A stretch of 64,000 nucleotides of DNA from Octopus vulgaris (lineage: Eukaryota): positions 20,088,001 to 20,152,000 of the forward strand of contig OX597833.1 in the NCBI GenBank assembly GCA_951406725.2, written 5' to 3'. Every line of letters starts with the position of its first letter. Position 1 is the first letter of the stretch. The notes under the pieces were generated by a model. The model ran no database searches, had not been told where the DNA came from, and worked only from the letters and a program-made list of their open reading frames with translations. Positions 3,337-59,552 of this stretch are shown here, one piece after another. Both the position numbers and the translations under genes were made by a program.

Positions 3337-3873
3337 TACTGTGAAATGGGGTTAGTTTGAACACCAGGGTAACTTTGAGCAAAATATAATATTTTGTTTT
3401 CTCTTTATATCACAGCTCAAGGTTGCACAATAATGCAATTTAAAAATAATTTTCCTTCAGCTGAATGGGCTAATTAATTTTTAAAGTGAAACAAATCCCA
3501 ATTAGTATCACACCTGTACCAAAATATCAAAAGATCCAGAGCATGTTTAAGTGCTACAGAAGTATCCTTGTATGTCCAGCACTTACAAGTGACTCTTACA
3601 GTTGATGGAAAACTTATCCCTCCAAATAACATATTCAACTTTTGAACAAAAATTTTAAAAAACATTACTGCTCAAAGTAACCCCAAATCAGGGGTTACTT
3701 TGAACAGTGACAATTATATAAAAAAGGTAATCAAATATTGACTGCAACTTATTTTTATTTCATATATCAGTTTACCTATTTAGTGCCCCTAACATAGTCA
3801 AATTTAGTTAAGATTGAAAAAGAAGTTATGAAATTATTGCAATAAGAAGTCAAAGTAACCCCATCTCATGGTA
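3337..3873. mobile_element. pogo/Tc1-mariner-type MITE
   Basis: Imperfect TIRs TACTGTGAAATGGGGTTAGTTTGA ... TCAAAGTAACCCCATCTCATGGTA with terminal TA; TIR-like GGGGTTACTTTGA motifs repeated internally; no ORF. Confidence 0.6.
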
Positions 3874-3893
3874 CCTTTATATATATATATATA

Positions 3894-4195
3894 TCATGCA
3901 CCATTCGAGTGTGATCATTACCAGCGTCGCCTTACTGGCACCTGTGCCGGTGGCATGTGTAAAAAGATTCAAGCGAGGTCGTTGCCAGTACCGCCTGACT
4001 GGCCCCCGTGCCAGTGGCATGTAAAGGCACCCACTACACTCTCGGAGTGGTTGGCATTAGGAAGGCCATCCAGCTGTAGAAACTCTGCTAAATCAAGATT
4101 GGTGCCTGGTGCAGCCATCTGGTTCACCAGCCCTCAGTCAAATTATCCAACCCATGCTAGCATGGAAAGCAGATGTTCAACAATGATGATGATGA
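3894..4195 (+). mobile_element. Family C short retroelement (RTE-like tail, (GAT)n end)
   Basis: CCCACTACACTCTCGGAGTGGTTGGCATTAGGAAGG...CCAACCCATGCTAGCATGGAAAG...GATGATGATG; over 10 related copies in the window. Confidence 0.8.
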
Positions 4196-4208
4196 TATAT
4201 ATATATAT

Positions 4209-4433
4209 ATGGCTGCACCAGGCTCCAATCTTGATCTGGCAGAGTTTTTACAGCTGGATGCCCTTCCTAACGCCAACCACTCCGAGAGTGTAGTGGGTAC
4301 CTTTACATGCCACCGGCATGAGGGCCAGTCGGGTGGTACTGGCAACGACCTCGCTCGAATCTTTTTACACATGCCACCGGCACAGGTGCCAGTAAGGCGA
4401 CGCTGGTAACGATCACGCTCAAATGCTGCGTGA
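4209..4433 (-). mobile_element. Family C element, inverted copy lacking its tail
   Basis: Reverse complement of 3894-4120 with high identity. Confidence 0.8.
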
Positions 4434-20293: not shown

Positions 20294-21306
20294 CAGGGGT
20301 TCTCAACTACTTTTATCTATGGACCCCTTTGATTACTATTTTATTCTGGTGGAACCCCATAGCCATTCGGTCTCCCCTTCGTAAATATATATATAAGGAC
20401 ACAGGAAATGTGTCAAGGCTGACAGGAAGTGTTGATGCTTCCTAGGGTTAAACAGGGGTGGTGTAATTCCCTTACAGGAATGTCACATTAAGTTGACAGT
20501 ATACAACCACTCTATTGCTCCACCACCGTACATATCTCTATGAGATATTTAGAAATTTAATATGCCTAAAAGCTAGTTTTATAAATACTTCTTTCAAAAT
20601 TCCTGTTTTGTGTTTCACACATTCACTTGTATAAGTTTGCAACAGAACTTGCTGAGAGAACATGTTTCAGTTGTTGAGAACATGTAAAACTATGCAAAAC
20701 ATCAGAGAAAGAAACCTAGCTGTTTCGTATTGCTTTACTGCCCACAAGGGGCTAAACATAGAGGGGACAAACAAGGACAGACAAACGGATTAAGTCGATT
20801 ATATCGACCCCAGTGCATAACTGGTACTTAATTTATCGACCCCGAAAGGATGAAAGGCAAAGTCGACCTTGGCGGAATTTGAACTCAGAACGTAACAGCA
20901 GATGAAATATTTATTTCTTTACTACCCACAAGGGGCTAAACACAAAGAGGACAAACAAGGACAGACAAACGGATTAAGTCGATTATATCGACCCCAGTGC
21001 ATAACTGGTACTTAATTTATCGACCCCGAAAGAATGAAAGGCAAAGTCGACCTTGGCAGAATTTGAACCCAGAACGTAACAGCAGATGAAATACCACTAA
21101 GCATTTCGCCCAGCGTGCTAACGTTTCTGCCAGTTCGCCACCTTAAACCTAGCTGTTTCTAACAATAAACACATCTACAGCAAAATTTTCTTCGTGGCCC
21201 TTTAAAATACTAACATGGATCCCCAGTTTATTATTTTCTTGCATGGGCCCCAAAAATCTGATATTGATCCCCCAGTGTCTATATGGACCCTGGTTCAGAA
21301 CCACTG
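20294..21306 (+). mobile_element. hAT (Charlie-like) MITE with nested insertions
   Basis: TIRs CAGGGGTTCTCAAC / GTTCAGAACCACTG; 8 bp TSD ATATAAAG / ATATAGAG (7/8 match); related copy at 42728-43045. Confidence 0.75.
20727..21144 (-). mobile_element. Family B SINE head-to-tail dimer
   Basis: Two ~183 bp units; 15 bp TSD AAACCTAGCTGTTTC at 20712-26 and 21145-59. Confidence 0.9.
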
Positions 21307-24558: not shown

Positions 24559-25056
24559 TAACAAATGTTACAGTTGATTACATAATTTATTCAAACTTTG
24601 CTTTATGATCATTTAATTGAATTTAATTTTGGAAAATTGATCAGCTGAATCAAATGACCGAAACAAAGTAAAAGAGTAAAAGTTTTGGTTACTATTTAGT
24701 TACTTATGGCAGAATTCTTCTTACAGATTTGAATATCATTATCATCATCATCATCATCATTTGACATCTGTTAAACGATGATGATGGCATTCAAATCTAA
24801 AGAGGAAATGTTGATTGTTATGTTTCACCATAAGAGAACAACTTCTCCTTTGCGGTGAGTGTGCGTTCTTATCGCACGATTCAATTCATTAGCACAAGGG
24901 ACTTGGGCATAGCTGATGTTTTGACATCGTTATGTCTCATCAGTCAGAAGCACCCCAGACTAATGAACGAAACAAAAAATTTGAAACTCTTGTTTACAAC
25001 TTCAGCAAACAAACTATTTGCTGATCTTTGTGATATCTGCCAACCATTGATAAACC

Positions 25057-25473
25057 TATTTCTTTACTACTCACAAGGGGCTAAACACAGAGAGGACAAA
25101 CAAGAACAGACAAACGGATTAAGTCAATTATATCGACCCCAGTGTGTAACTGGTACTTATTTAATCGACCCCGAAAGGATGAAAGGCAAAGTCGACCTTG
25201 GCGGAATTTGAACCCAGAACGTAACGGCAGACGAAATACCTATTTCTTTACTACCCACAGGGGGCTAAACACAGAGAGGATAAACAAGGACAGACAAACG
25301 GATTAAGTCAATTATATCGACCCCAGTGTGTAACTGGTACTTATTTAATCGACCCCGAAAGGATGAAAGGCAAAGTCGACCTTGGCGGAATTTGAACACA
25401 GAACGTAACGGCAGACGAAATACCACTAAGCATTTCGCCTGGCGTGCTAACGATTCTGCCAGCTCGCCGCCTT
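25057..25473 (-). mobile_element. Family B SINE head-to-tail dimer
   Basis: Two ~183 bp units; TSD-like CCATTGATAAACC / CCAATGATAAACC. Confidence 0.9.
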
Positions 25474-29216: not shown

Positions 29217-29460
29217 TTTCTGAAGAAACTGCACCAAGCCACAGACTTTCCCAGAAGAGAAAAGCCTTACACTATTTCTATTTACTTTTTCGAATGAGCC
29301 CATTTAAAATCATTACGGCAGAAACGAAACGTTACGCTAAATGTAAACAAAACGAAAGAAACGATAGTTTGTTATTTCCCACAACCTTAAATGAAATTAA
29401 GGCCTATTTTGCCATAAATATTATTATGGGTATCAGAAAGTTACCCAGAATAACAAATTC
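29217..29460 (+). pseudogene. piggyBac (PGBD/DDE_Tnp_1_7-like) transposase fragment
   Basis: FSEETAP..ALHYFYLLF..FKIITAETKRYA..FPTTLNEIKAYFAINIIMGIRKLPRI resembles the piggyBac ETNRYA..T..EIKA...I.MG..KLP region. Confidence 0.75.
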
Positions 29461-29665
29461 TATCGTAAAATTTTGTTGTATACCCAATTGAATATTAGCT
29501 AATAACCCATTTTCTATAGCGATGTTTGAACAAAATTTTAATAATTTTACAGAAAGTTACCCAGAATAACAAATTCTATCGTAAAATTTTGTTGTATACC
29601 CAATTGAATATTAGCTAATAACCCATTTTCTATAGCGATGTTTGAACAAAATTTTAATAATTTTA
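29434..29665. repeat. Perfect 116 bp tandem duplication
   Basis: CAGAAAGTTACCCAG...AATAATTTTA at 29434-29549 and 29550-29665. Confidence 0.95.
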
Positions 29666-38618: not shown

Positions 38619-39500
38619 AGGCATTGGTATGGCTATGTGGTTAGGCAACTCAATTCACAATCGTATGATTTTGAGTTCAGTTCCACTGAACAGTAGCTTG
38701 GGTAAGTGTCTCCTACTATATCTCTGGGCCAACCAATGCCTTGCGAGTTAATTTGGTAGATGGAAAATGTGTGGAAGCCCATTGTATTATATATATATGT
38801 GTGTGCATGTATGTATGTATGTATGTATGTCACTCATCTGTCTCGTTTTATGACTACGAAGATGACTCATGAGTCCAGCTTTACTGAGGCAGGGTCTTGC
38901 ACAGACATTGCATGTCAGAATCAAAGGCAGACCCTTCCCTTCTGGAAGTGTAACAGTGATGCCCTTCCTGACATCCCTCCTTACTGGCCACTGGTGGTGG
39001 TGTAACACACCATACTAATCATATCTGTCGGGCATGTGGAAGAGAGTGTAATTCGGCAGGAGGACTTAAACGACATGCAAAGGTACATGAAGCCCAGTTA
39101 CAACTACAGCCGGCTATTACCACTAAAGGTTTTAGCTGCCAATTTTGTACAAGACATTGTAGATCTTTAGCTGGGCAAAAAAGTCACATTCGATCACAGC
39201 ACCAGTAACAGTTAAGCTTCGTGCAATGGCCATACTCGATAATGAGGGGGCAGCCATAATGTATGTATGTATGTATGTATGTGCACGTCTGTTTTTATGC
39301 TTGACTCCTGTTATCACTCGACAACTGGTGTTAGTTTATTTACTTCCTCACAACTTGGCATTTTGGCAAGAGATATGAATAGAATAAGGAGCAGACTTAA
39401 AAGAAATACTGGCATTGATTCGTTTGACAAAAACCCTTCAAGGCAATGACTCAGGATGGCCACAGTTGCATGAATGAAACAAGTGAAATGTAAAATGAAG
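38619..39500 (+). mobile_element. Family A SINE interrupted in its (TATG)n by a LINE fragment
   Basis: Head at 38619-38830, tail at 39280-39500. Confidence 0.8.
38831..39280 (+). mobile_element. RTE-type LINE 3' end with inverted 5' segment; C2H2 zinc-finger coding remnants
   Basis: Minus 38990-38831: CNVCARPCLSKAGLMSHLRSH; plus 39014-39208: CRACGRECNSAGGLKRHAKVH...CQFCTRHCRSLAGQKSHIRSQH*; short 3' UTR and (ATGT)n tail. Confidence 0.75.
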
Positions 39501-49670: not shown

Positions 49671-50274
49671 GAATGTGATTAGGTGTGTGTATATAAATAT
49701 AAACACACACACAAACACACATTATATACATATAGATAGAATCACTCCTTCACACATACATACACGCATATATACACGCACATTTCCATGCACACATTAG
49801 TATAAGTAAGTTCAAAGTATAAGTGCAAATGGCCTACCATTTTGGCAGACATGAATAAACTAAGTGCATCTCACCTACAGGAATAAACGGTCAGCTGATG
49901 ACCTAAAACATCAATGATACCCTGCTTCAGCTGCTGTGTAACAGTACAGACTATCACTTGAGTACAGGCTCTTAATAAAAAGGAAACATTATATAATGTA
50001 ATCTTAAATACATTATGTCTAAATGAATGATTGGATGGTCATGGCTGAAATGTCTTTGATCATAGGTTCACACAATCACATTAGACCTGGGAATAAGCTA
50101 CAGCAACTATAGACACACAGGTGCACGTATAGAGTTATGGAAGGATTTGTCTGTATTGTAAGCATGGATGACTACAACATAGAAATGCAACACAAGCACT
50201 GTGTGTTTAAACTCTTGGTTGATGCAATTCATGATAGTGTTACTCAGAAAAGCAGAATAGCTTGATTTCTAAAA

Positions 50275-51024
50275 TATTGGGTTGTCTGGAAAGTCATTGC
50301 TGATTTATAGCAGCTTACCTTTCGACTTATTTTAGAACATGGTTGGGTCCATAAAATAGGATTTGACTACACCTCCATTTAGAGCACAGTTTAAGTTATC
50401 TTTTCGTGGAAGAAGATTTATGTTCCTATAACCTGAATAGCTTGATTTCTAAAATATTGGGTTGTCTGGAAAGTCATTGCCAATTTATAGCAGCTTATCT
50501 TTCGACTTATTTTAGAACATGGTTGAGTCCATAAAATAGGATTTGACTACGCCTCCATTTAGAGCACAGTTTAAACTATCTTTTCGTGGAAGAAGATTTA
50601 TGTTCCTATAACCTGTGTTAATTCTGTAACCCTTTAAAATGGAAGATAAGAAAGTTCATTTTCGGCACTTGATGCTTTGGGAACCAGACAAAAATTGCTG
50701 CAACTTGGCTGGGATGTGTTACTCCACTCTCCATATTCACCAGATATTGCTCCTTCGGATTTCCACTTATTCAAGTCTCTGCAGAATAGTGTTAATGGTA
50801 AAAATTTCAATTCCTTGGATGACATAAAAAGATACCTTGATGAATTCTTTGCCATGAAACCACCTCAATTGTGGGAAGAGGGTATTTTCAAGTTAAAGGA
50901 AAGATGGAAACGCATTGTGCAACAAAATGGTTCATATTTGGTTGATTAAAAATGTAATGACAAGTATTTATCAATCTTTTTCTTTCCTTTAAAAATTGGC
51001 ACGAACTTTCCGGACAACCCAATA
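50275..51024 (+). mobile_element. Internally deleted mariner with a duplicated left end
   Basis: TA-TTGGGTTGTCTGGAAAG ... CTTTCCGGACAACCCAA-TA; MEDKKVHFRHLML joined to LGWDVLLHSPYSPDIAPSDFHLF...NGSYLVD*; 180 bp tandem repeat at 50255-50614. Confidence 0.9.
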
Positions 51025-59139: not shown

Positions 59140-59552
59140 TTTTTCTTTATTGCCCACAAGTAGCTAAACATAGAGGGGACAAAAAAGGACAAAGGGATTA
59201 AGTCAATTACATCGACCCCAGTGCATAACTGGTACTTAATTTATCGACCCAGAAAGGATGAAAGGCAAAGTTGACCTCAGTGGAATTTGAACTCAGAAAG
59301 TAACGGCAGACGAAATACCTATTTCTTTACTACCCACAAGGGGCTAAACACAGAGGGGACAAACAAGGACAGACAAATGGATTAAGTCGATTACATCGAC
59401 CCCAGTACATAACTGGTACTTATTTAATCGACCCCGAAAGGATGAAAGGCAAAGTCAACCTCGGCAGAATTTGAACTCAGAACATAGCAGCAGACGAAAT
59501 ACCGCTAAGCATTTTGCCCAACATGCTAACATTTCTGCCAGCTCGCTGCCTT
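59140..59552 (-). mobile_element. Family B SINE head-to-tail dimer
   Basis: Two units with junction GACGAAATAC-CTATTTCTTT. Confidence 0.9.

Follow-up and report, generated by a model that had tools for sequence, protein, structure and literature searches.

The 64,000 nucleotides of Octopus vulgaris DNA analysed here (GCA_951406725.2, contig OX597833.1, positions 20,088,001 to 20,152,000 of the forward strand; below, the window) hold a 5'-truncated and 5'-inverted copy of an RTE-type LINE with a single open reading frame (ORF), which resides in the (ATGT)n microsatellite of a SINE-like repeat (Table 1). From the sequences of this copy and of its relatives, it most probably arose through twin priming within a single insertion event, an explanation to which we assign a probability of roughly 80%. 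The same mechanism had been proposed in an initial annotation of this DNA, and it is still the best account of the geometry of the copy, the microhomologies at its joints, the recurrence of such copies in the genome and the target duplications around sister copies.

Table 1. Features of the inverted RTE copy and its surroundings (positions in the window).
Feature	Position	Strand	Basis or remark
5' half of host SINE-like repeat	38621..38785 (approximate limits)	+	other copies carry it collinear with the right half across a TA/TG/TATG tract
Left target tract, (ATGT)6	38807..38830	+	sequence; 3' end is the presumed second primer
Inverted LINE segment	38828..38985	-	tail-less; family positions 3782-3939 of 4218
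C2H2 finger 1 coding stretch	38850..38912	-	translation
Inversion junction	38984..38985	.	2-nt microhomology CT; 2 nt of element missing between segments
Sense 3' LINE segment	38984..39260	+	family positions 3942-4218
C2H2 finger 2 coding stretch	39026..39088	+	translation; Pfam zf-C2H2 E 0.0006, below curated cut-off
C2H2 finger 3 coding stretch (H-x4-H)	39137..39202	+	translation; conserved in homologues
Stop codon after finger 3	39206-39208	+	protein end SQHQ*
3' UTR, ending in GCAGCCA and one TAA tail unit	39209..39259	+	3' ends of 30 copies, tail counts
Right target tract, (ATGT)6	39259..39282	+	holds target-site duplication
3' half of host SINE-like repeat	39283..39495 (approximate limits)	+	collinear pairs

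The DNA on either side of the copy belongs to a single abundant short repeat, whose two halves are separated at its internal TA/TG/TATG tract. Twenty-six collinear pairs of such halves were identified in the window and in the fetched loci (denoted L followed by a number), two of which are the window site itself. The original proposal that the element entered the microsatellite of a SINE-like repeat is supported; ARAGORN calls no tRNA gene in this host repeat. The inverted segment differs from the family majority at 3 of 158 nt and the sense segment at 4 of 277 nt and, judged by the total of 7 differences in 435 nt, the copy is young. The last three nucleotides of the left tract, TGT (38828-38830), also match the element, i.e., tract and element overlap by 3 nt. 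Because the tract is a pure repeat, the length of the target duplication of this particular copy is unreadable (up to 24 nt). The copy codes for nothing functional and carries no sign of a function; in the rest of the window, the sole further piece of the family is a weak 31-nt match. The junction found in the window is unseen among the listed contigs of runs from four other samples, where contigs report presence only, and the support for this copy is therefore that of the assembly. In runs X1 and X2, contigs at single-copy depth run from one half of the host repeat straight into the other and skip 38721-39314, with a short side of 23 letters; this joint, which was left out of the evidence, may represent an empty allele or another copy of the SINE.

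In sister copies the two halves of the element adjoin and are co-oriented, and in near-full-length copies a single frame runs through fingers 1-2-3. The outcome that the initial annotation had named as fatal to its reading, i.e., halves that stem from different LINE families or from a host gene, was looked for and is not what these copies contain. The majority sequence of the family, derived from near-full-length copies, comprises 4,218 nt with a 560-nt leader and one frame of 1,201 codons, which encodes an APE endonuclease, a reverse transcriptase (RT) and three C2H2 fingers; the Pfam domains Exo_endo_phos and RVT_1 are recognized on real copies and there is no ORF1. The protein is 47.6% identical over ~1,085 aa (1,045 bits) to a primer-tagged 1,109-aa frame of RTE-2_OV, while the matches of its RT to L1 ORF2p (E 4e-15) and R2 (1e-10) are far weaker. 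By these pairwise scores, with RTE-2_OV as the one named RTE reference, the family is placed in the RTE clade. Exact 3'-end patterns match 1,027 and 54 places (more than 1,000 3' ends in all), and the sampled copies have a median length of ~370 nt. No intact ORF of the focal family was found among the 82 RT matches scored, all of which are broken or partial (this count is a lower bound). Some RTE families harbor an HDV-like ribozyme at the 5' end; an Rfam scan of one copy of the non-autonomous derivative described below gave microsatellite-driven matches only.

Identity of the family with RTE-2_OV, described in PMC9115989, was considered and rejected, as each of six published primers has 6-7 mismatches to the focal family and the primer-tagged family is a separate one in the genome, where a published primer tags 122 sites and one tagged copy carries the published 1,109-aa frame. 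Both families, as far as the available text of PMC9115989 describes RTE-2_OV, have a single ORF with endonuclease, RT and C-terminal C2H2, and inverted copies are found in RTE-2_OV as well; it differs from the focal family in having one finger rather than three, another 3' end and insertion sites that are less bound to microsatellites. At the DNA level the two are 89% identical over positions 20-194 (L349, L148), compared with 48% for the proteins, which suggests exchange of the 5' UTR or strong constraint. Further versions of this shared 5' region, at 77-78% identity, are located at L193 and L200. Several RTE-2_OV copies (L338, L348, L349) harbor unbroken frames of ~1,109 codons; the short-read survey of 2022 (PMC9115989, available text) reports that no full-length genomic copies were found. 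A bipartite RTE-2_OV derivative, in which 1-433 is joined to 3881-3967, is present at L249.

The finger peptides are found where the initial annotation had put them, with finger 1 on the minus strand and fingers 2 and 3 on the plus strand; the protein end had been read one residue too early (see Table 1). Profile matches are weak on these short pieces: the best on the left piece is Pfam zf-met for finger 1 (E 0.0015, below the curated cut-off), and the right piece has a further match to Zn_SUZ12 (E 2e-6). The view that three fingers are unusual for an RTE element is contradicted by the best 120 of 817 full-length homologues (E ≤1e-50), where three C-terminal fingers are found in 50 proteins, two in 10, one in 53 and none in 7. 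In a tree, all 61 multi-finger proteins, including the focal one, group within a single, weakly supported branch (0.66) of 67 members, and RTE-2_OV lies outside. The nearest homologue, a non-octopus-annotated RT protein, aligns in register through the three fingers (52% identity over 288 aa). TGEKP-type linkers mark host tandem C2H2 (Kruppel-type) genes, and none is found between the fingers of the focal sequence; a homologue search with the finger region alone returned no match. Because of the finger counts in homologues, the single branch, the alignment in register and the absence of the linker, the three-finger C-terminus appears to be inherited within a wide RTE sub-lineage. Since three fingers are ordinary in this lineage, capture of a host zinc finger is not needed, and this candidate explanation was rejected on the same four grounds. 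The suggested link to the expansion of C2H2 genes in octopus is likewise not borne out, given the confinement of multi-finger proteins to one weakly supported branch and the missing TGEKP-type linker. Three fingers are the normal C-terminus of the family, and the zinc-finger aspect is an ordinary one; a single C-terminal finger in an octopus RTE element has already been published and is termed relatively rare (PMC9115989, in the text available).

Inverted copies, the counting of which had been suggested at the outset, are recurrent. Among copies sampled by their 3' end only, i.e., with inverted pieces shorter than ~16 nt missed and the window copy not counted, direct inversions were found in 11 of 99 distinct copies (first 100 matches listed, one 3'-end pattern), in 4 of 41 copies from 53 other matches (second 3'-end pattern) and in 3 of 61 copies of a held-out set of consecutive matches. 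The pooled rate is 18/201, or 9% (95% CI 5-14%), which corresponds to about one in eleven copies; at 5%, the held-out set falls below the 10-11% of the first samples. In RTE-2_OV, inversions are seen in 3 of 38 distinct copies (first 39 matches listed), and in the non-autonomous derivative in 1 of 30. These numbers exclude cases of internal self-similarity (L159, L137, L296 and the derivative's 87-110 and 3855-3872 matches), distant or weak cases (L034, L107, L279, L284, L326 among others), head-to-head neighbours (L069, L139, L311), inversions within a longer copy (L042, L081) and L123, where the inverted piece lies 27 nt upstream in the element and 1.2 kb away; the duplicates L085 and L340 were dropped, and L086-L088, which extend beyond the fetched flank, were scored as not inverted. 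An apparent wealth of inverted 5' pieces, drawn from 1,582 5'-end matches, was set aside, 26 of the 30 sampled being non-autonomous derivatives.

The (ATGT)n to the right of the copy had been taken for the tail of the element. This assignment has to be given up: GCAGCCA is followed by one TAA unit in 95 of 141 copies, by two in 27, by three to five in 16 and by more in 3, i.e., the family tail is mostly (TAA)1-5, and the right (ATGT)n is target DNA. The longer repeats beside the element are part of the target as well, and in 72 of 93 typed copies the repeat on the left is of the same type as that on the right, as compared to 54.5 expected (0 of 20,000 permutations reached this value); opposite-strand (TACA)n or (CA)n was found on the left flank of none of the typed copies. 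Where the flanks are interrupted repeats, target duplications of 9-18 bp with A as the first base are discernible (e.g., L048, L167, L008, L138). The available text of PMC6007223 describes for RTE elements a short microsatellite-like 3' tail and a target duplication of 7-15 bp that begins with A, a pattern which the tail and duplications of the focal family fit.

The joints were examined in 19 inverted copies, composed of the window copy, 3 from a similarity search and 15 from the samples. In most of them the inverted part borders on the left microsatellite, and neither a remnant of sense sequence nor an inverted microsatellite is present, in support of the 5'-inverted geometry first described for the window copy. 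Twelve of the 19 inversion junctions display microhomology of 1-5 nt, two are blunt and five contain 4-12 extra bases; the mean microhomology is 1.74 nt vs 0.67 nt for random joins (P 8e-5), and the chance of a 2-nt microhomology alone, as in the window, is 16%. For the 12 copies whose left repeat is regular (7 of 19 being excluded from this comparison), the overlap between left flank and element is 2.33 nt on average vs 0.63 nt by chance (0 of 3,000 simulations). The earlier suggestion to examine microhomology at both ends of the left part is thus answered by CT and TGT in the window copy and by an excess at both joints across the family. When three held-out copies are added, the inverted end is at most 60 nt away from the start of the sense part in 9 of 22 cases (P 5e-9 vs uniform placement), and in the others gaps of ~100 nt to 4 kb separate the two. 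The inverted copies L002, L010 and L136 and, in less repetitive DNA, the RTE-2_OV copies L261 and L267 each lie between target duplications of 11-12 bp; no clear target duplication was found at L122 and L160, which have non-repeat left flanks. Of the 18 sampled inversions, 15 have all or most of their inverted DNA upstream of the point where the sense part begins, so that it cannot be a copy of the retained cDNA; in the other three (L056, L092, L125) it lies wholly inside the sense range, which fits snap-back better. The inverted leader pieces of L010, L109, L064 and L319 begin at positions 242-256, a possible hot spot of priming. At L020 and L261, short words of the element occur several times over at the 5' junction, as would result from repeated slipping and re-priming.

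Applied to the window copy, twin priming would proceed as follows. The endonuclease of the element would nick the (ACAT)n strand, and the nicked end would pair with the RNA 3' end ...CCAUAAU and prime cDNA synthesis that extends back to position 3942. A second nick, staggered by ~9-18 nt in the family, would free a top-strand end, ...TATGT, which could pair with ACA at RNA positions 3937-3939, a site immediately in front of the first cDNA. From this second primer, 158 nt of opposite-strand cDNA would be made, and the two cDNAs would then be joined through CT. While the nicks, the priming and the joining are steps that we infer, the arrangement of segments, the microhomologies, the ~9% recurrence and the duplications around sister copies are observed directly.

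An inverted part could also be made by host end-joining, through polymerase-theta-like template switching or snap-back, with cDNA or another genomic copy rather than RNA as the template. Snap-back is known for R2 insertions (PMC11371274, in the portion available), and the three sampled inversions that fall inside the sense range, together with short extra or repeated bases at several junctions, are as expected from such repair. The inverted part of the window copy, however, is located entirely upstream of the sense start and is thus absent from the retained cDNA, and copying from another locus would not favour ends less than 60 nt from the breakpoint. Moreover, the inverted pieces of L037, L064 and L154 reach the 5' terminus of the element, as would be expected of an RT that runs off its RNA. 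Host snap-back or templated repair accounts for a minority of copies but not for a segment that is missing from the retained cDNA, and we consider it an unlikely origin of the window copy.

Inversion in place of an ordinary truncated copy after its insertion, during replication or repair, would be compatible with the unstable microsatellites on both flanks and has a parallel in L042, where an internal inversion is flanked by sense sequence on either side. The left breakpoint, though, coincides with the boundary between element and flank in the window copy and the majority of other cases, with neither a leftover sense piece nor a flipped (TACA)n, and the young age of the window copy also speaks against a later event, which we regard as highly improbable. 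Two opposite insertions into one microsatellite, followed by loss, or an artefact of the assembly would be consistent with the junction being unseen in the contigs listed for other runs, and independent head-to-head neighbours do occur (L069/L182, L311). These neighbours retain their own tails and intervening DNA. It is improbable that independent copies of a 4.2-kb element would leave a gap of 2 nt; in addition, the breakpoints differ from one inverted copy to the next and single target duplications enclose both parts. Such an origin is scarcely tenable, and twin priming is the reading followed below.

The inverted RTE copies resemble those of human L1 in having an inverted internal segment at the 5' flank, a tailed sense 3' segment, microhomology at the two joints, small gaps or overlaps along with a tail of large gaps, and a target duplication of more than 10 bp; similar junction features of human L1 are reported in the available parts of PMC2912911 and PMC12016303 (section 8). 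The inversion rate of human L1, ~10% of all copies and 18-31% of recent ones, is of the same order as the ~9% found here. In human L1, 46% of inverted ends are within 20 nt (PMC12016303, section 8, as available) compared with 5 of 22 in the present set. The focal element differs from L1 in having one ORF and no ORF1p, a short (TAA)n in place of poly(A), a microsatellite target and an invertebrate host. In the cell assays of PMC4245944, in the text available, 5' inversion was confined to L1 in human cells, with a single Nimb-2_DR insert as the exception, and the authors link inversion to long target overhangs of 10-20 bp. Nimb-2_DR and ZfL2-1 are non-L1 LINEs that were tested there for 5' inversion, and the overhangs of 10-20 bp fit the duplications of 9-18 bp seen here; unlike for these elements, inversion in the octopus RTE is a regular germline product of two families. 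No report of inverted or twin-primed RTE copies was found in the literature searched, of which coverage was partial, so that an earlier mention is possible. The mechanism itself is already known; the RTE clade, the microsatellite target and the one-protein setting appear to be new.

On balance, we lean towards the broader view that twin priming is a routine pathway of RTE LINEs that lack ORF1 (~8-9% of copies in two octopus families), favoured by pairing of microsatellite overhangs with short ACA/AUA/AUAC words and able to use two RNAs at one site (LINE and bipartite derivative, L064/L238). If this is correct, 5' inversion would be a general property of LINE RTs at long staggered breaks rather than a speciality of mammalian L1 and ORF1p. 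To date, twin priming has been inferred almost wholly from mammalian L1, and the cell assays (PMC4245944, in the available text) hinted at a need for L1 and human host factors. If RTE inversion is indeed twin priming, it would require no second helper protein. Thousands of young RTE copies, ~9% of them inverted, from a one-protein element constitute a natural data set on what twin priming needs, i.e., the length of the overhang, the pairing of primer and RNA, one or two RNA molecules and the absence of ORF1p. The targeting of microsatellites inside SINE-like repeats also bears on the growth of cephalopod repeat landscapes.

The second RNA would come from a 558-bp non-autonomous derivative, which is composed of the family's 5' 512 nt and 3' 45 nt and ends in CCACCAT (e.g., L183:1483-2040). 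It gives 1,440 exact 3'-end matches, mostly of full length and also located in TA/TGTA tracts (loci L174-L202, L215-L244). Its bipartite build is that of the non-autonomous RTE elements Bov-A, RTESINE and WALLSI3 (PMC5786205, as far as available); it differs from these in that it shares microsatellite targeting with its LINE and may act as the other template where inverted chimeras form. The five aligned autonomous copies all carry a T-rich insert in the leader, which is missing from 15 of 16 derivative loci with a pattern match. L064 combines a LINE-only 3' part with an inverted leader piece of the derivative type and, reciprocally, L238, the sole exception among the 16, combines a derivative 3' part with an inverted piece that carries the T-rich insert. 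These two cases, read against few autonomous references, provide a lead that inverted and sense parts may originate from different RNAs. We suspect a resemblance to the opposite-orientation snRNA/L1 chimeras of PMC4476161, in which two RNAs are primed from two target ends; in the text available from that study, L2 and RTE chimeras were found by template switching only.

A second type of derivative, with 1-602 joined to 4137-4218, is found at L144, L173 and L192. At L201:1467-1737, which is also the site of L081, a 5' piece without a tail (1-261) follows (TGTA)4 in antisense orientation within a LINE copy, between 7-bp repeats GATGGAA and with 3 nt in common at its 3' end; this piece has the appearance of an internally primed, 3'-truncated insertion. 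Internal deletions that keep the orientation are common in the family as well (L003, L009, L080, L087, L152, L155, L302, L327). Elsewhere in the window, exact two-copy tandem duplications are located at 20728-21093, 25054-25424 and 59142-59503 (184 bp), 50255-50615 (180 bp) and 29434-29665 (116 bp), where the three 184-bp duplications repeat one common unit of an abundant repeat.
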